Virus record (IMG/VR): IMGVR_UViG_3300030430_003122
Location: 1 to 64,000 of that record
DNA length: 64,000 nucleotides
Strand: one strand, 5' to 3'
From: a virus
Shown here: in pieces, positions 1 through 64,000 of the stretch
Layout of the letters: every line of letters begins with the position of its first letter
Numbering within the stretch: the first letter of the stretch is position 1
Notes under the pieces: model-generated
The model's input: only the letters and a program-made list of their open reading frames with translations
Told to the model about the DNA's origin: nothing
The model's database searches: none
Position numbers and translations under genes: made by a program

Positions 1-497
1 TCGCTGATAAGTTTGGTCTTGATCAATTTACTCTTACTGAAACACAAGTTCCTCTACCCCTACACTTCCACGGCACTGGTTACATCGATAAAGATGATGA
101 CACCTATTTCCCAATTGCAGGTGAGGAGAACGAGCATGGATTTATGGGACAACCGGGATTTGGTAATCAAAAAGTGGCACTAATTAGTGGTGATGGTCCC
201 GATGGTAGTGATCCGACCACCGGTCGCACCATGCGGTCGGTTTCCGCCAATGTGAATGCAAGCACCGAGTATATCAGAGAGGACAGTATAATCTACCCTG
301 CACTCACAACATATCAAGTTCGACCCTCCGTCTCATCGGAGACAAATGGTTTCTTGGGTGGGTTCCCACCAAGACCCGGAACGATTACTCCCGCCGAGTT
401 TACCGGTAACACCCGAGGTTATGATACGGAAGTGTCCCTTGATAAAATTACCAACACACAACCGTCCATCGCGTTGAACTACATAATTAAGTTCTAA
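1..497 (+). CDS. C-terminal part of a tail collar / short tail fibre (gp12-like) protein, truncated by window start
   Basis: Frame is open from position 3 (ADKFGLDQFTLTETQVPLPLHFHG...) and ends NTQPSIALNYIIKF, the typical tail-collar C-terminal motif. Confidence 0.7.
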   Translation, partial: ADKFGLDQFTLTETQVPLPLHFHGTGYIDKDDDTYFPIAGEENEHGFMGQPGFGNQKVALISGDGPDGSDPTTGRTMRSVSANVNASTEYIREDSIIYPALTTYQVRPSVSSETNGFLGGFPPRPGTITPAEFTGNTRGYDTEVSLDKITNTQPSIALNYIIKF

Positions 498-512
498 TAG
501 AGAAAGAGATCA

Positions 513-2291
513 ATGGCAGGAAAAGCATTTACAAATTTAAACAAGATCTTTCTATCGGATACCTTTCGTGCGTGGTTTGATAAAACAAACCAAATCATAA
601 GCACAATTAACCCGCTCGAAATCTACGGTGTCACCGCTGGTGTCGGCGAAGTCGCTGGCATCACTATGGAATTCAATACTGACGGAACAGTGACCATTGG
701 TCTTGACCTACCGGACGCACTTACAGGTGACTTTAGTTTTAATACTGGGGTAACTTTTAACAATTTTATAAGTGTCGCTGGTCTGACTGTAGACTTTTCT
801 GCGAACGGAGGACATGGTGCGACTTTAACCGGTCGAGTTGTCCGCACCATCAACGGAGCAACGGGAGATGTCGCTCTGGATTTTGTTGCTATCCCCGGAA
901 ACTCTGCGGACGGTGATATACTCTACTATGAGAACACAGGGGCGGGGGCAACCTTCCGTTCCTATAACTTGTTCTCAGATGGAACCGCTGATAACGGCAT
1001 GGTTCATGTTGGCGGTAGTGGTGGTGTTTTCTTCGGCATCACCGCAGGCGGTGCCTCTTCGGCAAATGAATTTGTAAAACTAGGGAACATTCAACTTGTA
1101 GGCACAACCGCCTCTGGTATCTACATGGTTGATAACTCACAAACATCCCTAAGCACTGCGAAGATCGCCGGTGCAGACATTCGCTACGGCACGGAGGGTA
1201 GTTCACAGTTACTCACTATCGGTGGTAGGAATATTAGTGGGACTAAACACTCCACGAACAACCTTATTTTAGATTTTAATAATCAGACCACGACGGTTGG
1301 TGGTGGAGTGACTGGAAACGGTTCCCTAAACATCGGAGACGCGAGTAACTTCGGAAGACCCATTCTCTATACGGACAACGGTGGGGAAACATTTGCTCTT
1401 CGATACCTTTTAGTAAACGAAAAGGGCGGTAGGACATCCGGCGGATCTGCTGGTGTCGCTGCCCTCGGAGGAAACCCATCAACCAAGGGACTTTCGGATG
1501 TTGGCAAGCGGATTCGACTGGAGCATGACGCTGCCTCTGTTGAAGTTGAAATTTCTGGTCCGGGCAAAACCTCTGGTTTTGTAGTTTATGGTCAAGAGGA
1601 ATCTGGACATGTTTACGGCGACTTGCTTCTTCCAACGCTTGTTGCAAGAAAAGACGGAAACGTTGTAATTGGTGGTATTGCTCCAGATGATGGTGGTATC
1701 ACAGGAACAACATTTGGTAGTCTCAACGTTCCTAGTGGTAAATTATATCTTGGAGGAAAGATTGGAGAGTCTGCCACCAAGGGAATGCAAATCATCACCA
1801 GTAATGGTGTAACCGCTGGATGGACCTCACTATCAAGCACGGCATTTAACTACGTTGGGACAATTTCCTCCTTGAATGATACTACCGCCTCTCTAGGCGA
1901 AAGTCCATCAGTCTCAGAGAATTCAAGCAATACTATTTTGTTCAGGGATGAAAATAGGTTAGAGCAAACTGGTCCCTTTACAATTCAAGTAAACTTCCCG
2001 TTAGTTAAACTATCAGGAAAACAATCAAGAACTTATGATGCAGTTTTAGGTGTCGCAATAAATATAGATGGCACTCAAAAGTTAATGAGAGAAACTGTTT
2101 TGTGGAAAGATCTCCATGCACATGGGATAGATTCAATTTCTCCGACATTTGTGATGGCAGGTCAAGCGAATAAATTTGTAAGGATAACACCATTCGCCAC
2201 ACTTAGACTAACTACTGCGAACGGTGCTGACGAGAGATTTTCATATGTTATTCCCGGAACTTACACAGCAACATTCAATAAGATAGGTTAA
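513..2291 (+). CDS. Gly/Thr-rich virion (fibre/baseplate-associated) protein
   Basis: N-terminal SDTFRAWFDKTN motif typical of T4-like fibre N-termini; beta-rich G/T composition; lies in the tail module. Confidence 0.6.
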   Translation: MAGKAFTNLNKIFLSDTFRAWFDKTNQIISTINPLEIYGVTAGVGEVAGITMEFNTDGTVTIGLDLPDALTGDFSFNTGVTFNNFISVAGLTVDFSANGGHGATLTGRVVRTINGATGDVALDFVAIPGNSADGDILYYENTGAGATFRSYNLFSDGTADNGMVHVGGSGGVFFGITAGGASSANEFVKLGNIQLVGTTASGIYMVDNSQTSLSTAKIAGADIRYGTEGSSQLLTIGGRNISGTKHSTNNLILDFNNQTTTVGGGVTGNGSLNIGDASNFGRPILYTDNGGETFALRYLLVNEKGGRTSGGSAGVAALGGNPSTKGLSDVGKRIRLEHDAASVEVEISGPGKTSGFVVYGQEESGHVYGDLLLPTLVARKDGNVVIGGIAPDDGGITGTTFGSLNVPSGKLYLGGKIGESATKGMQIITSNGVTAGWTSLSSTAFNYVGTISSLNDTTASLGESPSVSENSSNTILFRDENRLEQTGPFTIQVNFPLVKLSGKQSRTYDAVLGVAINIDGTQKLMRETVLWKDLHAHGIDSISPTFVMAGQANKFVRITPFATLRLTTANGADERFSYVIPGTYTATFNKIG

Positions 2292-2292
2292 A

Positions 2293-3357
2293 ATGGCACT
2301 ATACTCAGGAAATGTAAATGGTAATACTCGAACGTTTGTTTTCTCCGCCACAGGCGGAACAAACGCTAATTTCGTAACGACTATTGGTGCTGGTGCTTCC
2401 ACCGGTGATTATGTCTCCGCTGGTGGAGACACCTTTGGCACTACAGCGGAGATTAGATCGTTTCGTGGAAACGTGGCATATTTAAACTATAAAAGAAACA
2501 CCACCGAGGTTAGAACAGAACTTTTACCAAGTGGTGGTATAACCTTCACAGAGGAAGATGTTATTCCTGATCCAAGAATTGTCGTTGGATTTTTGGTGGG
2601 AGAGGGAATAACTGGTCACCACATGGATGAGATTCACTATCAGAGTGGTGCTGGAAATGTTGAGGCATTTCTTGGTCGATTAACCTACTCTAGCGGTTCT
2701 ACTCTAGTCCCTGAAGGTTCAGCACTAATTGAACTTGTTGCCCCCGGTCTTACGGGAGTTACTACCCCAAATAGAGATGACCCGGACCCACTTAAAGATA
2801 TTTTTACTGTCGCTGCTGGGAATACCATCGAAAATAAAACAAATGGTATGGTAAGTTCAAATACAACCGGTTCAACTTTTACCAGCACCGCTACTTTTGT
2901 TCGAGTGCCTGTTCCCACTTATAAAAACGTAATTTTAGGTCAAGTTAGGGGTAGTGTTGAGTCTGCTGGTTTAGACTCTAACGGTCTCACTGGTATCACC
3001 ATCGGAGATGCTACTCACCTAAGACACGTTATGGTCGAACTAGGATCTAAAGAATTAAATGAATTTTTAAATAAATCAGCACACGTTAGAAATAACAATG
3101 CAATAACTGGTGACTCTTCCCGAGTTGGACAAATATTTACGTCTACAGGTATTTCAGGAACCACTATCTCAAACAAGGGGATCCTACTCAACGCGGTTAC
3201 TGGTGGAACGGTGGCGGGAACTAGTGTTTTGCAAGAGTTTGCCGCTAAGGTAGCAAACGCTGAATTTCAATTAGACCTAGATGAGAGGACCACTGTAGAG
3301 AAAATCTTAAATCAAACCTCTGTTCGTGGAATTGATCAGATCCCATTCACTTCTTGA
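2293..3357 (+). CDS. Hypothetical Gly/Thr-rich virion protein
   Basis: 354-aa ORF between fibre gene and gp13; many GxT motifs. Confidence 0.5.
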   Translation: MALYSGNVNGNTRTFVFSATGGTNANFVTTIGAGASTGDYVSAGGDTFGTTAEIRSFRGNVAYLNYKRNTTEVRTELLPSGGITFTEEDVIPDPRIVVGFLVGEGITGHHMDEIHYQSGAGNVEAFLGRLTYSSGSTLVPEGSALIELVAPGLTGVTTPNRDDPDPLKDIFTVAAGNTIENKTNGMVSSNTTGSTFTSTATFVRVPVPTYKNVILGQVRGSVESAGLDSNGLTGITIGDATHLRHVMVELGSKELNEFLNKSAHVRNNNAITGDSSRVGQIFTSTGISGTTISNKGILLNAVTGGTVAGTSVLQEFAAKVANAEFQLDLDERTTVEKILNQTSVRGIDQIPFTS

Positions 3358-3382
3358 CATTCTCGCTCCATACATATATTAT
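3354..3382 (+). promoter_or_regulatory. Overlapping sigma70-like promoter (TTGACA-17-TATTAT) and late-type CATACATA box upstream of gp13
   Basis: TTGACA 3354-3359, TATTAT 3377-3382, CATACATA 3369-3376; AAGGAG RBS follows. Confidence 0.5.
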
Positions 3383-3398
3383 GATAAGGAGCGTATAG

Positions 3399-4190: not shown

Positions 4191-4193
4191 TCA

Positions 4194-4655
4194 ATGGTAG
4201 AATTTAACAAAGACATAGACACATCGGATTTTGACGAGTTTGATTTTGGGTTTGAGTTGGTTGATGGTCCCGCTCCAGTCGAGACCACTTCTGAACCACA
4301 ATCCGTTTCCGTTGACACGACGGAGATTGATGATCGACTAGACACACTCGAAGACAAGATTAATAATGTTCTTAATATCGTTTCGCTCAGTGATTCTAGC
4401 GATGATATTCGTAGAGCGATTGAGGACCAAGGGGTCTCTATTTCAACCGCACTCGAATCTGTCGAGGATATGAAAGAAAATATGCAAAGAGAATATGAAA
4501 GAAAACTAGAAGAAGTTGAAAAACTTGTTCTACCTCTTTTAGTCAATCTTACAAAAAACCCAGAACGAGAATACATCAAGTGGCCAAATCGTGCTAAGTC
4601 CGTGCAAGGTCACATTAATAAGATTTTAGAGGTAACCAGAGGTAATGGCGACTAA
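4194..4655 (+). CDS. Hypothetical acidic coiled-coil protein
   Basis: 153-aa ORF between gp13 and gp14; heptad-rich middle; C-terminal NPEREYIKWPNR. Confidence 0.7.
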   Translation: MVEFNKDIDTSDFDEFDFGFELVDGPAPVETTSEPQSVSVDTTEIDDRLDTLEDKINNVLNIVSLSDSSDDIRRAIEDQGVSISTALESVEDMKENMQREYERKLEEVEKLVLPLLVNLTKNPEREYIKWPNRAKSVQGHINKILEVTRGNGD

Positions 4656-10845: not shown

Positions 10846-11409
10846 ATGAATATCGAAAGATTTAAATCAGCACTTTCTACAGGTGGCGTTCGTCCAGCAT
10901 TTTTCCGGGTTCAGGGTAACATCGGAAAGACAACGCTACCTGATAAGGTTGGTTTTCTAGTTAAAACCGCCGCCCTACCTGCCACTGAGATTGGTGAAAT
11001 CCCAGTGGACTATAGGGGTCGAACCATCAAACTTCCCGGAAAAAGAACCTATGGTGACTGGGAGATTACGCTTCTCGCGGATGGTGAGTTCCAACTTAGA
11101 AACGCCTTCGAGCGTTGGGTCAATGACCTAAACGATACTGTAGAGAATGTTGCCGATCAAGAGCATAACCTAAACAATGTTTTGTTCCCAAACTGGAGTA
11201 TTGATCAACTCGATAGACGAGGCAATCCAATTAAAACTTATACCATGTTCCACTGCTGGCCAAAGGCGGTTTCTCAGATCGAGAACACATATGATAATGA
11301 AGGTCTAGCAGAGTTTTCCGTGACACTCGCCTATTCTTACTTCCTCACCAATGACGGAACTGGTGCGAATCGAGTCCCACTCGGTGATGCTGCGTTCCCC
11401 GGTGAGTGA
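10846..11409 (+). CDS. gp19: Tail tube protein gp19
   Basis: GGVRP, YRGRTIKLPGKRTY, QLDRRG, EFSVTLAYSYF. Confidence 0.95.
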   Translation: MNIERFKSALSTGGVRPAFFRVQGNIGKTTLPDKVGFLVKTAALPATEIGEIPVDYRGRTIKLPGKRTYGDWEITLLADGEFQLRNAFERWVNDLNDTVENVADQEHNLNNVLFPNWSIDQLDRRGNPIKTYTMFHCWPKAVSQIENTYDNEGLAEFSVTLAYSYFLTNDGTGANRVPLGDAAFPGE

Positions 11410-17704: not shown

Positions 17705-17721
17705 ATTACATACATACTTGT

Positions 17722-18840: not shown

Positions 18841-20367
18841 ATGAGTGAACTTTTAATAGAACATGTTGATTCTGTCAATATACGAGTGAGATGTGAGAGG
18901 GGAGTTGCAAAAGAACTCTCTGATTACTTCACATTTAAAGTTCCCGGTCACGCCTATATGCCCGCGTATCGTAAACGGATATGGGACGGTCAGATTAAAC
19001 TATACAATATGTTCTCTCAAATGATCTATGCGGGTCTTGAGAAATATGTTATTCGCTTCGCTTCGGAACGTGGATACAAGGTAAAAACCGTAGCCAGAAA
19101 ACAAAATGGATTCACTGAATCTACGGTTCAGTCATATATGGAAGATCATTTAAAACTCTCCATAGGTGGCAAACCAATCAAACCACATGAACATCAGGTG
19201 AACGCCGTTACGCACGCTCTACGGAACGACAGAGCGTTGCTAGTGTCTCCAACGGGTTCTGGTAAGAGTCTAATCATCTACGCACTAATGCGTTACCATT
19301 TGGATAAAATAGAAAATGATAGAAAGATTCTCATCATCGTTCCTACCACCAGTCTGGTGTCTCAGTTATATTCTGACTTTGCAGACTACGCCAGTGGATC
19401 CACATGGAAAGTTGATCAAAACTGTCACAAAGTCATGGCAGGTGTTCCGAAAGATGATATCAAGCGTCGAGTGATTATTTCAACATGGCAGAGCATCCAC
19501 AAACAACCCAAGAAATTTTTTGACAAGTTTGCTGCGGTGTTTGGTGATGAATGTCACTTGTTTAAGGCGAAGTCTCTCACCGGCATTATGACCAAATTAG
19601 AAAACTGTCCTGTCCGAGTTGGAACCACCGGAACTCTAGATGGATCTCTTACACATAAACTCGTCATTGAAGGATTGTTTGGTCCCGTTCATCAGGTCAC
19701 AAAAACAAAAACGTTGATGGAAAGAAAACTCTTGTCAGAGTTGAAGATAGATGCTATACTGTTAAAACACAGCGAGTCTGTTCGTAATGAGATGAAGCGA
19801 TGTGCTTATCAAGACGAGATAGACTACATTGTTCGTTGCGATGAGAGAAACAGGTTTATATGCGATTTATGCTCGAACCTCAAAGGAAATACGCTCGTAC
19901 TATTCCAGTTCGTCGAAAAGCATGGTAAAATGTTACACAAGATAATGCAAGAAAAAAACCCAAATAAAAAGATCTTTTTTATCTACGGTAAAACAGATGC
20001 AGACATGCGAGAAGAGGTCCGAAGTATAACAGAGGGTGTAGACAACGCTATCATCATTGCATCCTATGGAACGTTTAGCACTGGTGTCTCCATCAAAAGA
20101 CTACATAATATTGTGTTCTCTTCACCGTCCAAAAGTAGGATTCGAGTGTTACAGAGCATCGGTCGTCAGTTGCGGAAGTCGGAGCATAAAGATGTTGCAA
20201 AACTTTACGATATTGCAGATGACCTCTCATGGAAAAAATACAAGAATCATACCCTTCGTCACTTCGAGGACCGCCTCAAGATTTACGACGGAGAGGGTTT
20301 TGAACACAAGGTTATCAAACTCAATCTGAAGGAGGATTTTCATGGCGAAAAACTACAAAGTTCTTAA
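18841..20367 (+). CDS. uvsW: SF2 helicase UvsW
   Basis: WDGQIKL, SPTGSGKS, GDECH, GTTGTL, LQSIGR. Confidence 0.97.
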   Translation: MSELLIEHVDSVNIRVRCERGVAKELSDYFTFKVPGHAYMPAYRKRIWDGQIKLYNMFSQMIYAGLEKYVIRFASERGYKVKTVARKQNGFTESTVQSYMEDHLKLSIGGKPIKPHEHQVNAVTHALRNDRALLVSPTGSGKSLIIYALMRYHLDKIENDRKILIIVPTTSLVSQLYSDFADYASGSTWKVDQNCHKVMAGVPKDDIKRRVIISTWQSIHKQPKKFFDKFAAVFGDECHLFKAKSLTGIMTKLENCPVRVGTTGTLDGSLTHKLVIEGLFGPVHQVTKTKTLMERKLLSELKIDAILLKHSESVRNEMKRCAYQDEIDYIVRCDERNRFICDLCSNLKGNTLVLFQFVEKHGKMLHKIMQEKNPNKKIFFIYGKTDADMREEVRSITEGVDNAIIIASYGTFSTGVSIKRLHNIVFSSPSKSRIRVLQSIGRQLRKSEHKDVAKLYDIADDLSWKKYKNHTLRHFEDRLKIYDGEGFEHKVIKLNLKEDFHGEKLQSS

Positions 20368-21510: not shown

Positions 21511-22538
21511 CAGATACCCACTTTGGTGCGAGAAATGACTCGCAACAGTTCTTAGATTATTTTCTTGGTTTTATTGAGAATCAATTTTTACCAGAGTGTG
21601 AAAAACAAAACATAGACACTGTGTTGCACTTGGGAGATCTTATGGATCGTCGCAAGTTTGTTAACTTTAATACACTCAATCAGGTCAGAGAACGTTTTAT
21701 CGAAAGACTTCAAGAACGTAACATGAAAATGTATTGCCTAATTGGCAATCACGACACATATTATAAAAATACAAATCAAGTAAACTCACTTACTGAATTG
21801 TTTGGTGAGAGGTATGATTGTTTTATCCCTATTGATGAACCCACGGACATATGTCTCGGTGGAAAAACATTTGGTATGGTCCCTTGGATAAACAAAGAAA
21901 ATAAAGAGCAATGTGATAATTTCTTAAAAGATAGTAAAGCAGATATCATGTGTGGTCACTTTGAACTCTCTGGTTATGAGGTTCTTCGTGGTGTTAAGTT
22001 TGACGGTGGGATGAGCGACAACCTGTTGAAAAGATTTGATGAGGTTTGGTCTGGCCATTTTCATATGAAACATTATAAGAATAATGTCCGGTACATGGGA
22101 ACCCCGTATCAAATCACATTTTCTGATCTATATGAGTCTAAAGGGTTTTATATTTATGACACCGATTCTGGTGACTTAGAGTTCATAGAAAACCCAGAAA
22201 AAATGTTCCTACATATTAATTATAAAGACAACACCGATATAGATGATCTGTCTGAGTATGAAAATAAGTTTATCAAAGTTTTTGTTGATGAGAAAAAGAG
22301 TCAAACTAAGTTTGATACATTCATAGACAATCTTTATGACGCAAAAGTTGGTAGCGTCACTATCGTAGAGAATGAAGAGTCGTTAGTCGAGGACACTGAT
22401 GTTGCAGATATGTCACTAGATACATTGTCTTTAATTTACAAAGAGGCGGAGGACTTTTACTCCACTATTGAAGGCGTGAATACAGCAAGACTAAAAAGAC
22501 TCATTCAAGAAATATACATGGAGGCAATATCACAATGA
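21492..22538 (+). CDS. gp47: Recombination nuclease gp47 (Mre11-like)
   Basis: TDTHFG, LGDLMDRRK, GNHD, SGHFH metallophosphoesterase motifs. Confidence 0.97.
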   Translation: MRIAILTDTHFGARNDSQQFLDYFLGFIENQFLPECEKQNIDTVLHLGDLMDRRKFVNFNTLNQVRERFIERLQERNMKMYCLIGNHDTYYKNTNQVNSLTELFGERYDCFIPIDEPTDICLGGKTFGMVPWINKENKEQCDNFLKDSKADIMCGHFELSGYEVLRGVKFDGGMSDNLLKRFDEVWSGHFHMKHYKNNVRYMGTPYQITFSDLYESKGFYIYDTDSGDLEFIENPEKMFLHINYKDNTDIDDLSEYENKFIKVFVDEKKSQTKFDTFIDNLYDAKVGSVTIVENEESLVEDTDVADMSLDTLSLIYKEAEDFYSTIEGVNTARLKRLIQEIYMEAISQ

Positions 22539-22783: not shown

Positions 22784-24504
22784 TTAGATTTCATAAAGTG
22801 AGATTCAGGAACTTTGGTTCCTTTGGTAATAATGGAACTGAAATCCACTTAGACAGACACAAGACCACTTTGGTCTCTGGGATGAATGGGCATGGTAAAT
22901 CATTTGCTTTGCTTGATTCTATTACATTTGCTCTGTTCGGTAAACCATTCAGAAAGATTAACATCCCACAACTAGTAAATTCTATTAATGAAAAAGATTG
23001 TTACGTTGAGGTTCATTTCTCCGTTGGTGAAGATGATTACGTTGTTCATCGAGGGGTCAAACCAAAGGTATTTGAAATTTATAAAAATAAAGAATTGATT
23101 GATCAAAATGCGAAAGCGAAGGACTATCAGAAAATGCTTGAGGAGAACATCCTCAAGATGAACTATAAGTCTTTTACTCAAGTTGTGATTCTCGGTAGTT
23201 CCTCCTTTGTTCCATTCATGCAGTTGTCCGCTGCTGATCGAAGAGAGGTCATTGAGGATGTTCTGGATATTCAAGTATTTTCCGACATGAATACTGTCCT
23301 TAAAACAAGAGTCTCTCTTAAGAAAGAAGAAATTAAAGATCTTGAAACTAGAGCAGAACTTCTCAAGTCTAAAATCTCTATGTTAGAGAGTCATATTGCC
23401 TCCTTAAAAGAACAAGATGACAGTAAGGTGTCTTCGCTTACAGAAGAACTTGAACTCACAGAATCAACCATTGAATCGTATGAAAAGAACGTGGACGCAC
23501 TGCTTGAAGAGCAGTCAGATCTTATCAATAAAACAGGAAAAGTTGATAAAGTAAAATCCGATCTATCAAAGTATGAAAATATGAGGAAGATCATTCAACA
23601 AACACATGATAAGAATGTGAAGAAGATCGAAGACATGGAGAAGATGGATCAGTGTCCGACTTGCACACAAAGTGTTCCGGAAGTTGTCAAGACAGAACTA
23701 ATTAATAAATTTGAAACAAAGCGGGAAGAATTATCCAATGGTCTTGATGACATCGCCACGCAGATTCAAGAGAAGAACGAAGCACTCGACGAATTGAGAG
23801 AATACTCCGCTAGAGCGAAAGAGGTTCATGATCAAATTGTGAAGAAGCGAAGTGAAGTAGAATCGAGTAAAAAGTATTCGACTAAACTAAGAAAAGAAAT
23901 CGCAGACATCCAGAAGAAGACCAGTGAAACAGATCAAACTGAAAACGCCACCACTTTGAAGAAATATAAAAAGGAGATGGCGGATACCAGAGATGAGAAG
24001 GTTCAACTCAAGGAAGACGCTGTTCTTCTTGGTGCGGTTGGTAATCTTTTAAAGGACACTGGAATTAAATCTAAGATCATCCGACATTACCTACCGGTCA
24101 TGAACAAACTAATCAATAAGTATCTAACCGACATGGGATTCTTCGCACAGTTTACTTTGGATGAAAACTTTAACGAAACAATCAAGAGCAGACATAGAGA
24201 TCAATTTAGTTACATGTCCTTTTCAGAGGGAGAAAAAATGAGAATAGATCTTGCCCTGCTCCTTGCTTGGAGAGAGATTGCTCGTCTCAAAAACAGTGCA
24301 AATACTAATCTACTCATTCTAGACGAGGTATTCGACTCTTCACTGGATACGGTTGGAACGGATGAGTTCTTGAAGTTAATGAGTGTTCTCAGTGCAAACA
24401 CGAATGTGTTTGTGATCAGTCACAAGTCCGATCAACTTGTAGATAAATTTGATAATCAGATTACCTTCGTGAAGAAGGGTAACTTTAGTAAACTCACTGG
24501 ATAA
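22780..24504 (+). CDS. gp46: Recombination ATPase gp46 (Rad50-like)
   Basis: NGHGKS Walker A, CPTC zinc hook, FSEGEKMRIDL, LILDEVFD. Confidence 0.97.
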   Translation: MIRFHKVRFRNFGSFGNNGTEIHLDRHKTTLVSGMNGHGKSFALLDSITFALFGKPFRKINIPQLVNSINEKDCYVEVHFSVGEDDYVVHRGVKPKVFEIYKNKELIDQNAKAKDYQKMLEENILKMNYKSFTQVVILGSSSFVPFMQLSAADRREVIEDVLDIQVFSDMNTVLKTRVSLKKEEIKDLETRAELLKSKISMLESHIASLKEQDDSKVSSLTEELELTESTIESYEKNVDALLEEQSDLINKTGKVDKVKSDLSKYENMRKIIQQTHDKNVKKIEDMEKMDQCPTCTQSVPEVVKTELINKFETKREELSNGLDDIATQIQEKNEALDELREYSARAKEVHDQIVKKRSEVESSKKYSTKLRKEIADIQKKTSETDQTENATTLKKYKKEMADTRDEKVQLKEDAVLLGAVGNLLKDTGIKSKIIRHYLPVMNKLINKYLTDMGFFAQFTLDENFNETIKSRHRDQFSYMSFSEGEKMRIDLALLLAWREIARLKNSANTNLLILDEVFDSSLDTVGTDEFLKLMSVLSANTNVFVISHKSDQLVDKFDNQITFVKKGNFSKLTG

Positions 24505-25304
24505 TGCAAGAAGGTCAAAAATCAAAATCGTTGCTCCGCTATCCCGGCGGAAAGTCATATGCCATCAGTGCGTTGATGCCATACTTCCCAGACGATATCA
24601 CTGAGATGGTTTCGCCATTTTTTGGTGGTGGATCTTTAGAGTGGCATCTCGCATCTAATGGTATCAATGTTTATGGGTATGATATTTTTGAACCATTGGT
24701 AAACTTCTGGCAACATGTTCTTAATCATAAAGAAGAATTACACGCACGGATTCTAGAGTTTCCGATTCCTCTGCCCAAGGAGGAATTTTATCGTATGCAA
24801 AAAGAATATGATAAATTAGAGAGTCCACTGGAGCAAGCAGCACATTTTTATGTTCTGAACCGAACCAGTTTCTCTGGAACTACTTTCTCCGGGGGCATGT
24901 CTCCCTCTCAGAAAAACTGGAACCCAAGATGTATAGAAAAGTTAAAGAATTTTTCACTAGGTGGACTTTTTGGGTCTGGCGGCACGGTGACAGTTGAGTG
25001 CCTAGACTTTAATGAATCTATGGAAAAGCATAAAAATCTTTTTGCCTATATGGATCCACCGTATCTTTTAGAGAACTCAACACTCTACGGTGACCGAGGT
25101 AGCACCCATAAAGATTTTGATCATTTGCAATTTTACAATAAGGTAAAAGATATGACTGGAAAGTGGGCGATCTCGTACAACGATCATCCCGAACTGATGG
25201 AACTCTATAAAGACTACAATATCCATACCCCAACATGGAGATATTCTATGAAATCAAAGGGTGGGTGCAAAGAGTCCTACGAAATATTGATTACCAATTA
25301 CTGA
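24504..25304 (+). CDS. dam: DNA adenine methyltransferase (Dam/D12 family)
   Basis: LRYPGGKS, PFFGGGS, DPPY, ISYND, EILITNY; GATC specificity not proven. Confidence 0.88.
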   Translation: MQEGQKSKSLLRYPGGKSYAISALMPYFPDDITEMVSPFFGGGSLEWHLASNGINVYGYDIFEPLVNFWQHVLNHKEELHARILEFPIPLPKEEFYRMQKEYDKLESPLEQAAHFYVLNRTSFSGTTFSGGMSPSQKNWNPRCIEKLKNFSLGGLFGSGGTVTVECLDFNESMEKHKNLFAYMDPPYLLENSTLYGDRGSTHKDFDHLQFYNKVKDMTGKWAISYNDHPELMELYKDYNIHTPTWRYSMKSKGGCKESYEILITNY

Positions 25305-32615: not shown

Positions 32616-33412
32616 CAAAAACAATCAGTTTTAATATGCTCGGCCGATATGGTCGTCTAGGAAACTCAATGTTTCAGTATGCCGCCGTGTTAGGATCTGC
32701 TAGAGCATCAGGACACAATCCCATTTGCCACCTTTCCGGGATACCCTTAATGTCAGAGTGTTTTGAATTGGGTTCAGTCCAAGATGGTCAGATTGAACCT
32801 GACTTATTGCTTAATGAGCAAGGGTTTAATTATCAACAAATAGCACATAATATTCCGTTCAATCGCAGTGTTGATTTCCGTGGTTACTTTCAAACAGAAA
32901 AATATTTTAAGCACGTTGAGACTGAGGTGAGACAAAACTTCGCTTTTAAACAATATATCAAGGATCTAGCGATTGAAAAAATTCCAGAAGACGTATGTGT
33001 TTCCGTTCATGTTCGTAGGGGGGATTATGTTGCTTTAGCAGAATACCACCATAACCAAACAATGGAATATTATCATGAAGCATTATCTAAATTTCCGAGG
33101 CACCGTCCCGTATTTTTTTCTGATGATATTGCGTGGTGTAAAGAGAATTTTTCACACATCGATAAGGCAGTTTTTGTCGAGAATGAAGAAACTCTAAACA
33201 CCAATGCCACATATAATTCAGACATATCTGGATACGTTGATATGTGTGCGATGTCTTTTTGCAACGACCATATCATTGCAAATAGTAGTTTTAGTTGGTG
33301 GGGTGCTTGGTTGGGACAAGGTAACGTGGTTGCACCTAAAAAGTGGTTTGGATCAAAAAAAGAAAATGAAAACCATGAAGATATTTATTGTGAAGGTTGG
33401 ATGGTCGTATGA
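32612..33412 (+). CDS. Glycosyltransferase family 11 (alpha-1,2-fucosyltransferase-like)
   Basis: GRLGNSMFQYA, GYFQTEKYF, HVRRGDY, FSDDIAWC, ANSSFSWWGAWL. Confidence 0.93.
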   Translation: MTKTISFNMLGRYGRLGNSMFQYAAVLGSARASGHNPICHLSGIPLMSECFELGSVQDGQIEPDLLLNEQGFNYQQIAHNIPFNRSVDFRGYFQTEKYFKHVETEVRQNFAFKQYIKDLAIEKIPEDVCVSVHVRRGDYVALAEYHHNQTMEYYHEALSKFPRHRPVFFSDDIAWCKENFSHIDKAVFVENEETLNTNATYNSDISGYVDMCAMSFCNDHIIANSSFSWWGAWLGQGNVVAPKKWFGSKKENENHEDIYCEGWMVV

Positions 33413-36365: not shown

Positions 36366-36366
36366 T

Positions 36367-40763: not shown

Positions 40764-40764
40764 T

Positions 40765-41721: not shown

Positions 41722-41749
41722 TACAAATTAAAAAAAGTAAAGGAAATAA

Positions 41750-42286
41750 ATGATGAAAAATGCGTTAATGATGACATGGGAACAATATCAAGATCACGAA
41801 GTAATCTACCCATACTATAGGGTTATTGAAGAAGGATTTAGTATTGATATCATGGCCAATGTTAAGGGAAGAATTCATGGAATTCTTGGCACTTACATGG
41901 AAAGCACAAGAACAGTAAGTGAACTTGATACTTCTTATGATGAGATCATGGATGAGTATGACTTATTGATAATTCCCGGCGGAGTTAAGTCGCTCGAAAA
42001 ATTACGACAAGAACAGAAAGCATTGGATTTCATTGCAGACTGGGACAGTAGAAATAAAACTATAGCGTGCATCTGTCACGGTGGACAGATGTTGATTTCA
42101 TCCAAGATAACTGAAGGTCGTGATGTTTCCGGTTATTACAGTATTAAAGATGATTTGATTAATTCTGGTGGTAATTATGTTGATGCTCCGGCAGTTGTAT
42201 CTAACAATCTCGTTTCATGTCCCCATTACAAGTGGATGGGTGAATGGATGTCATCTGTTTTTGACGTATACAACGAAAGGAATTGA
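41750..42286 (+). CDS. DJ-1/PfpI family protein
   Basis: DHEVIYPY, IIPGG, CICHG nucleophile elbow. Confidence 0.85.
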   Translation: MMKNALMMTWEQYQDHEVIYPYYRVIEEGFSIDIMANVKGRIHGILGTYMESTRTVSELDTSYDEIMDEYDLLIIPGGVKSLEKLRQEQKALDFIADWDSRNKTIACICHGGQMLISSKITEGRDVSGYYSIKDDLINSGGNYVDAPAVVSNNLVSCPHYKWMGEWMSSVFDVYNERN

Positions 42287-42969
42287 TGTTGTCCCACAAT
42301 AACAACATTGTGAAAAAACCGTGGGGTCATGAATACCTTTGTTATGAAAATGAACATGTCGGACTTTGGTTTTTATTCATAGAGAAGGATCACCAAACGT
42401 CACTTCACTGTCATCCTAAAAAAACTACAGGGTTGGTTCTTTTAGACGGTGAGGCAGAAATTTCATTTTTAGCAGATAAACGCACTATGAAATCAATTGA
42501 TAAGTTGATGATTAGGCGGGGACTGTTTCACTCTACTAAATCTTTATCAGATGGGGGGAGTTTTATTTTTGAAATAGAAACCCCGGTGGACAAAAAGGAT
42601 TTGGTTCGATTGAATGACAAGTATGGTCGCACCAGCAAACCATACGAAGACAGCAGTTTTGAATCGGCAAAGAATGAAGATTGCTTATGGATAGAAGAAC
42701 CCGATGTTGATAAATCAAATCACTATGATTTTTCAAATTGTAAATTGACTGTTGAAAATATTAGTAGTTTGGATTCTATTATTGAAAAGAAGGACGATGA
42801 CATTATAGTTTTTCTTCGTGGTGGCATGATTCGCACCATTGACGACATATCTCATTGTGTCACAGTGCCGGGTGATGTTGGTAAAGGAAACATTGTAAAG
42901 AAAGTGGCCCAGCAATTGGATGGGTTGAAACCAGAAACAATCATAATGACAATTAATAAGAATGATTAA
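42286..42969 (+). CDS. Cupin-domain protein (sugar-phosphate isomerase-like)
   Basis: KKPWGHE, TSLHCHPKK, FH, EIETP, DLVRLNDKYGR. Confidence 0.75.
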   Translation: MLSHNNNIVKKPWGHEYLCYENEHVGLWFLFIEKDHQTSLHCHPKKTTGLVLLDGEAEISFLADKRTMKSIDKLMIRRGLFHSTKSLSDGGSFIFEIETPVDKKDLVRLNDKYGRTSKPYEDSSFESAKNEDCLWIEEPDVDKSNHYDFSNCKLTVENISSLDSIIEKKDDDIIVFLRGGMIRTIDDISHCVTVPGDVGKGNIVKKVAQQLDGLKPETIIMTINKND

Positions 42970-43465: not shown

Positions 43466-45255
43466 TGAAATTGTCAGATTATGTCTTTGATTTTATGTCG
43501 GAAAAATCAATCGATACTATTTTTTCTGTATCAGGAGGGGCGGCCGCCCATCTATTAAACTCTGTTGCAGAAAGAAACGATTTTAAATTCATATGCAATT
43601 ATCATGAACAATCGTGTGCGATGGCAGCAGAGTCTTATGCCAGATTGATGAATAAACCTGCATGTGTTTTGTTGACAAACGGACCCGGATCGACAAACGC
43701 AATAACAGGGGTCTCTGGTGCTTACGGTGAATCAATTCCAATGATTGTTATTTCTGGGCAAGTTCCAACTAACTTATCTTTGAATATTTTATCAAACGAC
43801 ATTAATCTCAGACAACTTGGTGTGCAAGAGTGTGACATCATTAGTTCGGTCAAGTGCATGACAAAGTATGCTACTCAAGTTACAGATCCAAAAAGAATAA
43901 GATATCATTTGGAAAAAGCATATCATCTGGCAACAACTGGCAGAAAAGGACCGGTGTGGTTAGACATTCCATTGGACATTCAGAATGCCCAGATTGAACC
44001 AGAAGAGTTAATTGGTTATGAACCAGAAGATACACCACGTTTCTCATATGATATGGATGAATTAATTCAATTAATTTGTAATGCAAAAAAACCTGTCATA
44101 GTTACAGGTAATGGAATACATTTATCCAATACTGAAAAATTGTTTTTGGAATTAAAAGAGAAACTTCAGATTCCCATAGTTTCGACATGGACATCAAAAG
44201 ATTTGATGAACTTTGATGATGAATTGTTTGTGGGTAACTTCGGCATAATGGGAGAGCGATCTGCAAATTTGTCGATTCAAAATTCTGATTTGCTACTAAT
44301 TTTAGGGAGCAGATTGTCCGTTCCAAATACTGGATATAACTACAATTCATTTTCACCAGATTCAACAAAAATAATGGTGGACATAGATGCGAATGAGTTA
44401 AACAAACCAACTCTTAAAATAGATTTTCCAATAAATGAAAACTTAAATGTTTTTCTTTCCGGTCTACTTTCTAAGTTACAAGACGTTGACTTGCCTAGTT
44501 ATGAGACTTGGAAAAATTTAACACAGTCTTGGAAGTTAAAATATCCTGTTTTCCAAGAGGAGTATAAAAACAACAAGTCTAAAATAAACTCGTTCTACTT
44601 TATGGAAGTTCTCTCCGATAAGTTAACTGAAGATAGCATTGTTGTTACTGATATGGGAACCAGTTTTACTTGTTCTATGCAATCTCTGAAGATGAATGGA
44701 CATAATAGACTGTTTACTTCAAGTTCCCAGTCTTCAATGGGATATGGATTACCGGGCGCAATTGGATCATATTTTGCACAACCAGACAAAAATATTATAC
44801 TGATAGCGGGTGATGGCGGATTTCAGATGAACATACAAGAATTACAATGTGTGGTTCACTATAACATACCAATTAAAATGTTTATTCTCAATAATAATGG
44901 ATACTTAGCCATTTCTTTGATGCAAGATAATTTGTTTAACAGTAAATATATTGGATCAAACACTCAAAGTGGTGTTAGTAGTCCTGATTTTACCAAGGTG
45001 TCGGATGCATACGGTATTAAAAGTTTTAAATTCAACAATAATACCGAACTAGAAAATCATATAGATGAAGTTTTGAATTACGAAGGGACTGCATTGTGTG
45101 AAATAATGATGACAGAAAACCAATTATTGGTTCCTCGTGTTCAGAGTAAAAAAGATAATTGTGGTAATATACAATCAACAACTTTGGACGATATGTTCCC
45201 GCATTTGAGTAATGATGAAAAGGAAAGTATAAAGATGGAAATTAATAGTATATGA
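43465..45255 (+). CDS. ThDP-dependent enzyme (acetolactate synthase fold, YerE-like)
   Basis: HEQSCAMAAESY, TNGPGSTN, GPVWLDIP, MGYGLPGAIG, GDGGFQMNIQEL..NN. Confidence 0.88.
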   Translation: MKLSDYVFDFMSEKSIDTIFSVSGGAAAHLLNSVAERNDFKFICNYHEQSCAMAAESYARLMNKPACVLLTNGPGSTNAITGVSGAYGESIPMIVISGQVPTNLSLNILSNDINLRQLGVQECDIISSVKCMTKYATQVTDPKRIRYHLEKAYHLATTGRKGPVWLDIPLDIQNAQIEPEELIGYEPEDTPRFSYDMDELIQLICNAKKPVIVTGNGIHLSNTEKLFLELKEKLQIPIVSTWTSKDLMNFDDELFVGNFGIMGERSANLSIQNSDLLLILGSRLSVPNTGYNYNSFSPDSTKIMVDIDANELNKPTLKIDFPINENLNVFLSGLLSKLQDVDLPSYETWKNLTQSWKLKYPVFQEEYKNNKSKINSFYFMEVLSDKLTEDSIVVTDMGTSFTCSMQSLKMNGHNRLFTSSSQSSMGYGLPGAIGSYFAQPDKNIILIAGDGGFQMNIQELQCVVHYNIPIKMFILNNNGYLAISLMQDNLFNSKYIGSNTQSGVSSPDFTKVSDAYGIKSFKFNNNTELENHIDEVLNYEGTALCEIMMTENQLLVPRVQSKKDNCGNIQSTTLDDMFPHLSNDEKESIKMEINSI

Positions 45256-45289
45256 ATGTATTAATTATGGTTGATTGGGGTTATTCGAT

Positions 45290-48262: not shown

Positions 48263-48265
48263 ATA

Positions 48266-49651: not shown

Positions 49652-49653
49652 AC

Positions 49654-51530: not shown

Positions 51531-52138
51531 CCCCCATATGGTTTGGTGGTAGTCAAGGCGGACAAAGTGAGGATTGGTTCACTGATATGCGTGGTGCTGG
51601 ATCGGCGTATATTGACGGAAGTGATGATAGCGATACCGCCCAAAGTGCTTTAGTCTATCATCCGGGGTATCCTCATAACGGAACATTTACTGAAATAAGA
51701 CTCACTGGTGCGGTTGATGGGACCGAGGGGGCATCGTCCCAATACAACAGAGTTCCAAATTCAAGATTTGCCACCACCGCTAACCGTTCTGATGATCCGT
51801 TGTATGTTGCCCTGTATATTCACACAGATCAAATTCACTCATCAACTGATCCCGCTGGTCAGTATGGAAGTGTGGGAGTTCCGGGGTGGTATGTTTTCGG
51901 TCCATTAGTGGATCAGAATCCCGGTGTTAATGGAAGAAACATATGGACACAAATCGTTGCTTGGCCTACAGGTGGACCAAACACAGATAGATCTAATAAT
52001 GGGTTTCTAGGTCTTGGTGGCGATGCATATAACTTAATTGTCGTTGGTAAAAATAGTAGACCAAAAGCAAGTGGTGAAGGTGGAACTGATAGTTGGAGTA
52101 TTCCGTATGAACTACTTGAGTTTGATCCAGATCAATAA
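51527..52138 (+). CDS. Hypothetical protein (possible fibre tip/receptor-binding partner)
   Basis: ATGA-coupled to the collagen fibre gene; Gly/aromatic-rich. Confidence 0.55.
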
Positions 52139-55800: not shown

Positions 55801-55803
55801 ATA

Positions 55804-58675: not shown

Positions 58676-59760
58676 CCGTTTACATCGATAGAAAATTTGT
58701 TGACTATGTTTCAGGTTCACTCGACAAATTTTCTTGGAAAAAAGATAACCTTGCAAATTGTAGGTGTCCCCTTTGTGGCGACTCACAAAAAAACAAGAAC
58801 AAGTGTAGAGGATTCTTTTATGAACGAGAGGGTTCCTACTATTACAAGTGTCACAATTGTGGAGTGTCACTTTCGCTTTACTCCTTCTTGGAGCAGCACG
58901 CTCCAGCGTTGAAGACGGAGTATCAACTAGAACGGTATCGTGCGAACACGGAGAGTAAACCGAGACCACGACCCGTAAAAATTAAATCAACCGGTGTTGA
59001 AGAAATGTTTAGGAAAAAGTATAAAGAAGTTGTAGATACAAATTGGTTGACCCCAATTAAAGATCTTGACGAGAGTCATGCTGCTCGTCAGTTTGTGATC
59101 AATAGGAAGATCCCAAAGGACAAGCAGGATCTTTTATACTATTGCAAAAACTTTGGTTCATTTACGAAGCGACTGACAGGACAAACAAATCTTTATGGTG
59201 GGGGCGAAGACCGTATCGTTCTTCCTTTCTTTAACAAGGAGGGTAAGATGGTTGCCGCTCAGGGTCGAGCGTTGGCGATGCAGTCTGTTCATGGGAATGT
59301 TGATGACAATAGGCAGACACGAAAGACCAGAGAGTTACTTCGATACATCACCATCAAGTCAAGTGATGCCCCGGATAAACTTTGGTTCGGTCAATGGCGA
59401 GTAAATCCAAAGAAAAAAGTTTACATCGTCGAGGGACCAATTGATAGTTTGTTCATTAAAAACTGCATTGCAATGGTTGGTGCATCTGGGGTTGACAACG
59501 TTCCTCCCCATCTACAAAATAGCGAAGGCGTGTATGTTCTCGACAACGAACCACGCAACAAAGAAATTTACAATCTAAACGAAAAACTAATAAACCTTGG
59601 TAAGACCGTTTGTATTTGGCCAAGTGACATCACACAGAAAGACCCAAATGATATGGTTATGGCAGGGTATACAAGAAGAGAAATTAAAAAGATAATTGAT
59701 GACAATACTTGTAGCGGACTGGTCGCCAAGCATCGACTGAACGAATGGAGTAGAGCATGA
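58672..59760 (+). CDS. gp61: DNA primase gp61
   Basis: CRCPLCGDS..CHNCG zinc finger, QGR, VEGPIDS, DNEPRN, KDPND. Confidence 0.97.
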   Translation: MTVYIDRKFVDYVSGSLDKFSWKKDNLANCRCPLCGDSQKNKNKCRGFFYEREGSYYYKCHNCGVSLSLYSFLEQHAPALKTEYQLERYRANTESKPRPRPVKIKSTGVEEMFRKKYKEVVDTNWLTPIKDLDESHAARQFVINRKIPKDKQDLLYYCKNFGSFTKRLTGQTNLYGGGEDRIVLPFFNKEGKMVAAQGRALAMQSVHGNVDDNRQTRKTRELLRYITIKSSDAPDKLWFGQWRVNPKKKVYIVEGPIDSLFIKNCIAMVGASGVDNVPPHLQNSEGVYVLDNEPRNKEIYNLNEKLINLGKTVCIWPSDITQKDPNDMVMAGYTRREIKKIIDDNTCSGLVAKHRLNEWSRA

Positions 59761-60473: not shown

Positions 60474-60494
60474 AGGACACCCAAAGGAAATATA

Positions 60495-62438: not shown

Positions 62439-62461
62439 AACCATCTAAAAGGAGAATATAG

Positions 62462-63499
62462 ATGAATAGAATTTGTGCTATCCTATTACCATTTGTTTTC
62501 GGCGGAGTTGCCGTTGCAAGTGAACCAATGCCCGATGCGTATGAACTAATCATGCAAGATGTTCGGGATGATGCAGCGACCCGTCGATCACTAAAAGGTG
62601 ATCGGGTAGGAATCCGACTGGACGGTTTTGTTCAGACTGGTTGGTCCTACTCAGGCGGCGGTGATGCTGACGATGTGTACGGTTTCGATGTATACCGTGC
62701 AAGACTTGGACTCGCTGGTCGAGTCGGTAAGGATGCTACTTTCCGTCTAAGCGGCGAGTGGACTCCTGCAAGCGACTTTGAACTCGTCGAGGCGGTCCTC
62801 AACTACAGTGGATTCGACTTCGCTGATGTTCGTGTTGGTCAATTTGTTCCTGCTTTCTACAGCGGGTTCGTTGCCAACCCAACCGAACTCACCACGCAGA
62901 ACTATAGCGTTTCTGCTTTGACTTTTGGTCAGGGATTCGGTCAAGGCATTGAACTTTCACAGTCCTTCGGTGGACTTGATCTCAGTGCTTTCTACAATAA
63001 CGGGTTTGATAATCTAACCGGGGTCTCTAATGGTGACTATGCCGTTGGTGTCCGTGGTTCGTTTGAACTCGTTGACGGTTTCTCTCTCGGTGGCGGTTAC
63101 GCCTACATTGAGGGACCAAACCAGTATTCAACCGTTACTGTTGATGCTGACTTTGATCTTGACCCATTCAATCTAAATGTCGCGTGGATCGCTGACGACC
63201 AGATTGATGGTTGGGAGAACTACTCTGTGGTCGGAACTGGTTCTGTTGATCTTTCGGATCGTGCAGAACTCTTCGGTCAGTATGAGTATGGAAACCTCGG
63301 TGGTTTCGCCGGTGGTGATCTCAATGTGGGAACCATCGGTCTAAATTATGACTTGACCAAGGGTGTCAAGTGGACCAACTCGTTTGGTTACGCTTTTGAT
63401 GACATCGCCGGTGGTTTCGATACCACCAACACCGGTTGGAGAACTGGTGCAGGTCAAGGTGAATATGTGATTCGTAGTTTCGTCACAATTAGTTTCTGA
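62462..63499 (+). CDS. Outer-membrane beta-barrel porin (OprO/P-like)
   Basis: Sec signal peptide (MNRICAILLPFVFGGVAVA), GFDVYRARL, VRVGQF, alternating beta-strands, terminal Phe (VTISF). Confidence 0.8.
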   Translation: MNRICAILLPFVFGGVAVASEPMPDAYELIMQDVRDDAATRRSLKGDRVGIRLDGFVQTGWSYSGGGDADDVYGFDVYRARLGLAGRVGKDATFRLSGEWTPASDFELVEAVLNYSGFDFADVRVGQFVPAFYSGFVANPTELTTQNYSVSALTFGQGFGQGIELSQSFGGLDLSAFYNNGFDNLTGVSNGDYAVGVRGSFELVDGFSLGGGYAYIEGPNQYSTVTVDADFDLDPFNLNVAWIADDQIDGWENYSVVGTGSVDLSDRAELFGQYEYGNLGGFAGGDLNVGTIGLNYDLTKGVKWTNSFGYAFDDIAGGFDTTNTGWRTGAGQGEYVIRSFVTISF

Positions 63500-63516
63500 A
63501 CATAAGGAGAAATTTT

Positions 63517-63717
63517 ATGACTAACAAGAAATGTGAACAAGTATGCCCCGTCACTGGCGATGGATGTGACTGTATTAGCAAGGCACTTTGCAAGGTTGGT
63601 GTTTGCCGATCCACGCTAATTACTCTTGCTCTACTCCCATTCGCATGGGATGGTGTCGTCTGGGGTGCAGAAGTTGTTCGGTTCCTTTGGGATTCGGCAA
63701 CCTCCGCTGTCTCCTGA
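63517..63717 (+). CDS. Small Cys-rich membrane protein
   Basis: Strong RBS (TAAGGAG); six Cys then hydrophobic segment LITLALLPFAW. Confidence 0.75.
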   Translation: MTNKKCEQVCPVTGDGCDCISKALCKVGVCRSTLITLALLPFAWDGVVWGAEVVRFLWDSATSAVS

Positions 63718-63746
63718 TAAAAAAGAAGACAAGACAAAAGGCAAAC

Positions 63747-63775
63747 ACCCCGGTCACGGAAGACCGGGGTTTTTG
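63747..63775 (+). terminator. Rho-independent terminator
   Basis: ACCCCGGTC-ACGGAA-GACCGGGGT then TTTT. Confidence 0.85.
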
Positions 63776-63865
63776 TCTATAAGTGGAGGTTGTTTTTTAC
63801 ATAATGCTAACACATCACACATACAACGATAACACAGTCTAGACTAAGTATTTTTTGGAGATCAT

Positions 63866-64000
63866 ATGAAACTACTTTTATACGCCCTGTTATTTCTGAA
63901 TGTCGATGTTACCGAAGATATTACAACATCAACAACTTGGACTGCTGACAATGTTTACAACTTGACGAAACAAATCTATGTGTTGCCCGGTGCAACTTTG
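63866..64000 (+). CDS. N-terminus of a probable secreted beta-helix-type protein, truncated by window end
   Basis: GGAG RBS; MKLLLYALLFLNVDVTEDITTSTTWTADNVYNLTKQIYVLPGATL; hydrophobic leader. Confidence 0.6.
   Translation, partial: MKLLLYALLFLNVDVTEDITTSTTWTADNVYNLTKQIYVLPGATL

Follow-up and report, generated by a model that had tools for sequence, protein, structure and literature searches.

Near-complete avoidance of the DNA word RGCY in a divergent marine T4-like phage follows phage lineage rather than host

The stretch of DNA analysed here (hereafter the window) comprises the first 64 kb of a single virus record, IMG/VR record IMGVR_UViG_3300030430_003122 (86,122 b; CheckV completeness 47%), and derives from a divergent T4-like phage whose genome is kept almost free of the four-letter word RGCY (R, purine; Y, pyrimidine) by purifying selection. 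By exact count, the window, with a G+C content of 40.7%, contains 11 RGCY sites (AGCT 0, GGCT 0, AGCC 2, GGCC 9), whereas 653, 438 and 240 are expected from base composition, a first-order Markov model and a maximal-order Markov model, respectively. The set is closed under reverse complementation, AGCT and GGCC being palindromes and AGCC and GGCT complements of each other, and all four words are depleted. The neighbouring classes RGCR, YGCY and YGCR occur 750, 601 and 582 times, with counts for the individual sister words of 277 (AGCA), 123 (AGCG), 213 (GGCA), 137 (GGCG), 218 (TGCT), 150 (TGCC), 146 (CGCT), 87 (CGCC), 263 (TGCA), 106 (TGCG), 161 (CGCA) and 52 (CGCG). An earlier note on this DNA had proposed near-complete RGCY avoidance and listed 11 sites; the exact count returns the same 11 positions with none missed, and AGCT, AGCC and GGCT, at 0, 2 and 0, lie nowhere near expectation.

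The purge runs to the end of the contig at 86,122, the whole of which carries 14 RGCY against 930 expected from base composition, and the right arm beyond the window holds 3 sites against 270 expected. Extrapolated to a full genome of about 183 kb (if 86 kb represents 47% of it), this density predicts a few dozen sites, where composition alone would give roughly 2,000. A run of 10 N at contig positions 64305-64314, which resembles a scaffold gap, joins the window arm to this right arm. Open reading frames (ORFs) were defined by a simple longest-ORF rule, giving 112 ORFs that cover 95% of the record. When synonymous codons were permuted within each gene (200 rounds, 111 ORFs, 81,822 b), 538.5±16.6 RGCY were expected, with a minimum of 492, against 12 observed (z = -31.6); the Markov models (11 against 240-653 in the window) and this codon shuffle, both of which the earlier note had named as checks, bear the avoidance out. 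Spacers are purged as well, with 2 RGCY against 39 expected in 3,935 b of non-coding DNA. Contig DNA is present in 20 marine metagenome runs from 11 studies (two of these runs may be its source), and 8 runs contain at least half of the sampled words, with 97-99% present in each of X1-X4; the presence of the same DNA in many marine runs indicates that the purge is not an artefact of one assembly. Among 40 listed read variants at positions 32000-51999 in four runs, none creates RGCY, where 1.4 would be expected (P(0) = 0.24).

Removal of the word has proceeded almost entirely via synonymous recoding, although it also touches Trp-Pro dipeptides, tRNA genes and spacers. After a codon ending in a purine, Ala is encoded by GCA 318 times, GCG 141 times, GCC 5 times and GCT once (GCR in 459 of 465), whereas after a codon ending in a pyrimidine the corresponding counts are 363, 151, 235 and 310. 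The Gly codon GGC precedes a pyrimidine twice and a purine 197 times, and the Ser codon AGC 0 and 139 times. All 127 Leu codons that follow a codon ending in RG are TTA or TTG, while elsewhere CTN accounts for 1,392 of 1,962 Leu codons, and before Pro, Lys is always AAA (53/53), Glu always GAA (55/55) and Gln always CAA (30/30), which together amount to 138 of 138. The earlier note had reported TGG TTA/TTG at the Trp-Leu pairs inspected and GCA/GCG at gene starts encoding Met-Ala, and both regularities hold throughout: TTR is used in all 25 Trp-Leu pairs, and GCR in all eight gene starts with Ala in second place. Met-Ala pairs at large comprise 33 GCA, 9 GCG and a single GCC, the last being the residual site at 41854.

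Trp-Pro is the only dipeptide without an RGCY-free recoding, and it explains 4 of the 9 GGCC in the window, all of which are TGG CCN, as had been claimed. These forced sites lie on the plus strand at 4582..4585 (TGG CCA), 11258..11261 (TGG CCA, retained as TGG CCC in the relative L002), 51963..51966 (TGG CCT) and 59618..59621 (TGG CCA, in a primase-like gene). The dipeptide itself is scarce, occurring 4 times against 11.5 in residue shuffles (P = 0.007), whereas the reverse pair Pro-Trp occurs 11 times against 10.9, so that selection extends to protein sequence. In the right arm, no RGCY occurs in the 307 b of four tRNA genes (Lys-ttt, Arg-tct, Leu-taa and Ile-tat; minus strand, contig 78641-80949, equivalent to L082:14641-16949), where 5.7 are expected. 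The codons AAA, AGA and TTA, decoded by the Lys-ttt, Arg-tct and Leu-taa tRNAs, are favoured under the purge. The Lys and Arg tRNA genes have an A-T pair (AACTCAA ... GAGT) at a place in the D stem where the G-C pair found in many tRNAs creates AGCT.

The same condition prevails in close relatives. Two IMG/VR contigs, L001 and L002, whose capsid protein is 73-75% identical to that of this phage, contain 0 and 1 RGCY against 79 and 107 expected, and seven contigs overlapping the right arm (86-100% protein identity, judged on one gene) contain 4 in total against 1,195 expected. Across aligned bases, eight clade loci have diverged from the contig by 18.5-20.8%, which corresponds to 1,046-3,312 substitutions each. 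Were substitutions of the same types placed at random, 36-113 RGCY per locus would be expected, and 25-65 of the actual substitutions per locus would each alone create an RGCY; yet the eight relatives carry 0-1. The purge is thus old and still maintained by lasting purifying selection on the word, as the earlier inference of long selection had supposed. A relative of 44 kb (G005) is labelled 'provirus' in IMG/VR, which seems unlikely for a T4-like phage. In addition, contigs of two metagenome runs (X5 and X8) join window position 36372 to 38240, and contigs of X5 and X7 link 36343/36344 to 38239 through a stretch of about 30 different letters, suggesting that some strains lack the two glycosyltransferase-region genes at 36367-38237.

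In the CviJI system of chlorovirus IL-3A, as described in PMC3526282, the endonuclease R.CviJI is specific for RGCY, while the methylase M.CviJI modifies RGC(Y/G). The set avoided here equals the cutting set of the endonuclease: RGCY is reduced to 11 in the window, whereas RGCG is spared and even enriched (AGCG 123, GGCG 137; observed/expected ratio (O/E) 1.4-1.8 under the maximal-order Markov model). The identification of RGCY with CviJI specificity in the earlier note is therefore sound, and so is its argument that AluI-like plus HaeIII-like cutting would be insufficient, since AGCC and GGCT together number 3 against 244 expected. Escapes by transversion (Ala GCY to GCR, with 6 of 465 left) are as complete as those by transition, which, together with the enrichment of RGCG, argues for selection against cutting rather than decay of methylated cytosines. 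The resemblance to the chlorovirus system covers the avoided set and the sparing of RGCG, and that system is virus-borne (PMC3526282), but it belongs to a virus of a eukaryotic alga, and no C5 methylase was found in the present 47%-complete contig.

These observations bear directly on a methylation-linked origin, according to which RGCY methylated by a host or phage enzyme would decay by deamination or attract a modification-dependent nuclease. RGCY is indeed methylated in some marine viral genomes (PMC8919816), and most synonymous escapes are C-to-T or G-to-A changes (GGC to GGT, AGC to AGT, CTN to TTR, AAG to AAA). However, transversion escapes are equally complete, RGCG, which M.CviJI is reported to methylate, is enriched rather than depleted, and a 98% loss with compensated changes in relatives requires selection. 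Moreover, profile searches returned 0 matches to C5 cytosine methylases (PF00145) and 0 to PF01555-type (N4/N6) methylases in the contig and in five clade contigs. This origin is the least probable of the explanations weighed here, and the modification-dependent system that the earlier note had offered as one possible agent is left without support.

The pressure on RGCY follows phage lineage, not host. The capsid protein of this phage shares approximately 52% identity with its counterparts in P-TIM40, HTVC008M and Melnitz, three phages that their records assign to Kyanoviridae. Cultured phages were compared over 31-50 kb pieces or whole genomes, with expectations from base composition and YGCR as a control. 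RGCY O/E is 0.02 in this phage, 0.24 in P-TIM40, 0.18 in S-CREM1, 0.16 in S-CAM1, 0.26 in HTVC008M and 0.30 in Melnitz, so that all five cultured marine T4-like phages (Kyanoviridae) are depleted 3-6-fold, although their hosts range over cyanobacteria, SAR11 and OM43; in the same five, AGCC/GGCT stand at 0.15-0.26 and the control YGCR at 0.72-1.47. None of nine podoviruses is depleted (0.94-1.46), including the Pelagibacter phages HTVC010P (1.01), HTVC011P (1.00) and HTVC019P (0.94) as well as P60, P-SSP7 and Syn5 (1.29 each), P-SCSP-R27W (1.46), S-CBP1 (1.01) and S-RIP2 (0.94). The two groups do not overlap (6 versus 9; one-sided Mann-Whitney P = 2e-4, with relatedness ignored). On four shared host strains (HTCC1062 for HTVC008M, NATL2A for P-TIM40, CB0101 for S-CREM1 and WH7803 for S-CAM1), the T4-like phages show 0.16-0.26 and none of six podoviruses, three of them on HTCC1062, is depleted; the strains are hosts of the cultured relatives. 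As a lead to the host of the present phage, its porin gene (62462-63499) yielded no relative in two scans of genome contigs, and the 89 homologues bear no informative names. Since podoviruses on the same four strains are undepleted, restriction by those hosts is a poor explanation for the relatives of this phage. In T4-like phages of enterics and vibrios, RB49 and KVP40, RGCY stands at 0.66 and 0.75 and AGCC/GGCT at 0.90 and 0.71, so that the trait is not a property of T4-type machinery as such. In three partly depleted cyanophages (L102, L103 and L104), the RGCY-richest 1-kb bin lies at or just before the major capsid gene, around 19-21 kb, and contains 8-9 sites where the mean is about 2; the codon preference of a highly expressed gene may outweigh a weak per-site cost there.

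Other words are purged too, with RGCY making up the largest share. By codon shuffle, CCWGG occurs 0 times against 67, GCGC 11 against 95-97, GTAC 46 against 222 and ACGT 85 against 218-222, whereas GGWCC is not avoided (79 against 85). Of the 64 palindromic hexamers, 33 are absent from the genes, with a summed expectation of 345; the observed/expected counts include TTCGAA 0/30, TATATA 0/21, CCATGG 0/18, GTCGAC 0/16, CTCGAG 0/14, TCGCGA 0/13 and CTGCAG 0/12, and many of the absent hexamers (TTCGAA, CCATGG, GTCGAC, CTCGAG, TCGCGA and CTGCAG) lack all of the purged four-letter words. Most of this wider purge recurs in close relatives, but particular words differ, TGTACA being 0/27 here and 16/14 there, and AACGTT 17/27 in the contig and 0/14 in the close relatives.

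A Dam-type (D12 class) adenine methyltransferase gene lies at 24504..25304 on the plus strand (PF02086, E 1.5e-31). The usual target of D12-class Dam-type methylases is GATC, and GATC is not avoided in the contig (424 against 373 by codon shuffle), so that the gene serves as an internal control. GATC O/E is 1.40-1.59 in all three phages with a Dam-type methylase (this contig, P-TIM40 and S-CAM1); among those without one, HTVC008M (0.22) and Melnitz (0.03) avoid the word and S-CREM1 (1.48) does not. A survey of 41 further records found no PF01555 and three PF00145 methylases, too few to correlate with avoidance. In Melnitz (L097:4010-6194), a C5 cytosine methyltransferase gene is followed by an overlapping gene for a Tet/JBP-family dioxygenase (PF12851, E 3.6e-11), a pair that makes this cultured marine T4-like phage a candidate for DNA modification of the 5-hydroxymethylcytosine type.

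A Type II restriction-modification (R-M) system of the host population that cuts RGCY, met more often by T4-like phages because they infect more strains than podoviruses do, is a serious possibility that we rank second. Purges of this sort in lytic double-stranded DNA (dsDNA) phages have restriction-site avoidance as their usual cause (PMC6286503). RGCY also sits within the broad purge described above (CCWGG 0/67, GCGC 11/95, GTAC 46/222 and 33 of 64 hexamers), the purged repertoire shifts between close relatives, and GATC is spared where a Dam-type methylase is present and avoided in HTVC008M and Melnitz where it is not. Furthermore, a host 5-methylcytosine (m5C) methylase of RGCY would escape a survey by single-molecule real-time (SMRT) sequencing, which does not support m5C (PMC8919816). 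Against a host system stand the six podoviruses of all four strains, which are undepleted in RGCY even though three pelagiphages fully purge other words: HTVC010P, HTVC011P and HTVC019P (L108-L110) contain 0 GGCC (22-34 expected), 0-1 GCGC and 0 CCGG, and two of the three contain 0 GATC (112-128 expected). The purging of GGCC, GCGC and CCGG indicates that these podoviruses are exposed to Type II-like pressure. In HTVC008M, the T4-like phage of the same strain, GGCC, CCGG and GATC are depleted only 3-5-fold and GCGC stands at 0.67. In addition, depletion is alike in T4-like phages of cyanobacteria, SAR11 and OM43, and the literature searched yielded neither a report of RGCY avoidance in phages nor one of a bacterial RGCY enzyme. 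To our knowledge, no bacterial enzyme with RGCY specificity has been described, and RGCY is known as an enzyme word only from chlorovirus enzymes. Of the host restriction proposed in the earlier note, selection on the R.CviJI word set therefore stands, whereas its attribution to the host is at odds with the contrast between T4-like phages (0.16-0.26) and podoviruses of the same strains (0.94-1.46).

The unevenness of the purge might also suggest that no single enzyme is involved, and that the pattern combines the effects of one cutter resembling AluI (AGCT), another resembling HaeIII (GGCC) and a third agent acting on AGCC/GGCT. AGCT is at 0 in the window while GGCC keeps 9 sites; GGCC and AGCT stand at 0.01 and 0.28 in S-CAM1 and at 0.08 and 0.39 in P-TIM40; the locus L003 avoids AGCT (4/35) and GGCC (6/19) but not AGCC/GGCT (45/52); and podoviruses avoid GGCC alone. 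Nevertheless, the purge of AGCC/GGCT (3 against 244) is no less complete than that of the palindromes, the pair is depleted in all five cultured relatives (0.15-0.26), one degenerate palindrome accounts for all four words, and 4 of the 9 GGCC still present are the forced Trp-Pro sites. We know of no enzyme for the non-palindromic pair AGCC/GGCT alone. Such a sum of pressures is considered very unlikely.

Restriction-type word avoidance is in itself well known, and total or near-total removal of sites has been reported for roughly one viral genome in ten (Rusinov et al. 2018, PMC6286503). The present case resembles the restriction-site avoidance of non-temperate dsDNA phages described there in that the word is short and closed under reverse complementation and its removal mostly synonymous; it departs from the usual pattern in that the set is degenerate, four letters long but equivalent to three, in that about 540 sites have been recoded in 82 kb of genes, and in that depletion tracks phage family rather than host. 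What is unusual is therefore the word, the scale, the reach into protein and tRNA, and a depletion that follows phage family while sparing phages of the same strains. A second line of published evidence concerns methylation. According to Hiraoka et al. (2022, PMC8919816), no methylated motif is encountered more often in marine viral genomes than RGCY carrying N4-methylcytosine (m4C), found in 9 myovirus-like viral metagenome-assembled genomes (V-MAGs); the motifs RGCY, CCWGG and GGWCC are common to myovirus-like genomes, methylation is scarce in podovirus and siphovirus genomes, and viral methylation motifs are rarely shared with prokaryotic genomes. The word, the habitat and the kind of phage are thus similar, and CCWGG, methylated in those genomes, is absent here (0/67). 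However, those genomes methylate RGCY whereas this phage deletes it, GGWCC is methylated there and not avoided here (79/85), and a PF01555-type methylase was found neither in this contig nor in the five clade contigs or the 41 further records. Within one lineage, then, some phages methylate RGCY and others, this one among them, delete it; phages of other lineages seem to do neither.

The explanation that we place first, tentatively, is escape from an RGCY endonuclease circulating among marine T4-like phages (Kyanoviridae); the lineage-bound pattern, the chlorovirus precedent and the viral methylation data together favour it. RGCY would be the word cut by a double-strand endonuclease whose specificity is CviJI-like, each site representing a cutting risk, and the owner of the nuclease would be the gene pool of marine T4-like phages rather than the restriction system of a particular host. 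The enzyme could be the phage's own shredder of host DNA, encoded in the missing genome half, or a weapon of co-infecting relatives. Some phages of the lineage may be shielded by RGCY methylation, as in the marine myovirus-like genomes (PMC8919816), and this clade by the absence of sites. A more specific version, possible but rather doubtful, is that marine T4-like phages with unmodified cytosine tell self from non-self by vocabulary: a phage-borne CviJI-like nuclease would shred host or rival DNA, RGCY in phage genomes would be either deleted or m4C-methylated, and the 3-6-fold depletion across the family would be a fading trace of this arrangement.

Several observations weigh against escape from a phage-borne enzyme. 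Depletion is frequent in the lineage but not universal, since among 80 IMG/VR loci found with the capsid protein, 2 are fully purged, 20 lie at 0.15-0.30, 21 at 0.30-0.60 and 37 at or above 0.60. S-CAM1, S-CREM1 and HTVC008M, whose genomes are complete, encode neither a C5 nor a PF01555-type methylase and yet hold 66-81 RGCY per 41 kb, so that they cannot at present be expressing an efficient RGCY cutter against their own DNA. The wider, shifting palindrome purge of about 30 words resembles a routine arms race against many restriction systems. Few phages were sampled, and they cluster phylogenetically. Finally, Pfam searches found no restriction-type nuclease among 50 of the 112 ORFs of the 47%-complete contig, nor among 10 ORFs of a relative's extension.

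The nuclease-related Pfam finds in the contig comprise a protein resembling staphylococcal nuclease, a RuvC-like match that fell below cut-off, T4 RNase H, DenV and gp46/47. PADLOC detected no restriction-type nuclease in 10 ORFs. The PvuII family gave no match in the contig and the RE_HaeIII family none in 47 records, and in both cases the controls gave no match either; an Atlas search with a 376-amino-acid (376-aa) ORF returned no usable match. A 360-aa protein at contig 73215-74297 (minus strand; L082:9215-10297), with invariant D101, S110, K112 and E126 and no assigned function, gave weak Atlas leads to RE_HaeIII (0.85) and MspI (0.84), both below the Atlas line of 0.9. It matched no Pfam family even at E 10, no PDB profile and, in PHROGs, only a family of unknown function, while NCBIfam and PADLOC returned only a chance-level ZorA. 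Its family has 188 homologue clusters in metagenomes and is conserved, in synteny with a DUF6267 gene, in HTVC008M (54%) and Melnitz (35%). As a candidate for the RGCY nuclease this ORF was rejected: five contigs with 53-55% homologues are not purged, and tblastn (7 records matched) found it in no cyanophage of the family, yet three such cyanophages are RGCY-poor. A generic HNH protein in a relative (L105:1089-1613) was likewise set aside as an ordinary mobile HNH, as it matches the HNH motifs of many systems; relatives at 39% identity or less occur in 205 assorted phage records.

The residual sites offer a further view of the purge. The seven unforced sites of the window, all given on the plus strand, are AGCC at 19092..19095 (GTA GCC; the aligned place in L001 has no RGCY) and 44907..44910 (TTA GCC, context TAGCCA), and GGCC at 22053..22056 (GGC CAT, context TGGCCA), 32642..32645 (GGC CGA, context CGGCCG), 41854..41857 (ATG GCC, context TGGCCA, the sole GCY among 43 Met-Ala pairs), 42906..42909 (GTG GCC) and 43542..43545 (GCG GCC, context CGGCCG). 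Beyond the window, the unforced site at contig 73911 is absent in relatives where coverage allows comparison, and the spacer site at 80862 is retained in three relatives. Of the 12 genic residual sites, 10 have the form Y-RGCY-R, often TGGCCA, against 22.5% expected (P = 1.4e-5), as do 7 of the 8 unforced ones (P = 1.9e-4), and R-RGCY-N is absent from genes (0 against 314 expected). This flank preference was not reproduced in other phage groups.

Beyond the right end of the contig, relatives L105 and L106 carry 7 RGCY against 167 and 150 expected, and each of the 7 falls inside or next to a copy of CGGCTCCG; the 3.9 kb concerned (L105:7170-11059, L106:1806-5695; 50-54% G+C) contain 5 exact copies and 1 variant. 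This region spans a divergent gene pair encoding a CobT-like protein (assigned from its translation) and an AAA ATPase, and the orientation of the motif flips at the spacer between the two genes. The last RGCY site of the contig, 86108 (motif 86105-86112), is the orthologous copy, and elsewhere among the loci examined the exact 8-mer occurs twice. CGGCTCCG has the look of a functional motif, in DNA or RNA, that takes precedence over the purge. The clustering, the flip of orientation and the orthologous copy at 86108 are what might be expected if RGCY were the core of a signal for the phage's own machine, such as an initiator, nickase or packaging enzyme, with stray copies removed and true ones retained, and the trait tracks phage lineage as such a signal would. 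However, in the five cultured relatives and in three loci from IMG/VR the residual sites share no longer surrounding motif, the contig's 13 other sites lack CGGCTCCG, and no enzyme is assigned. A signal of this kind is considered very unlikely as the cause of the purge.

With respect to phage biology, RGCY is expected about once per 150 coding bases (538 in 81,822 b) and has been removed despite some cost to proteins, which implies that whatever reads the word must be a major cause of death for this lineage at sea. The comparison of phages sharing host strains moves the search for the RGCY enzyme from bacteria to phages. If the enzyme proves to be phage-borne, it could account for the way in which T4-like phages with unmodified cytosine might destroy host DNA while leaving their own intact, and a new family of frequent-cutting enzymes would be on offer.

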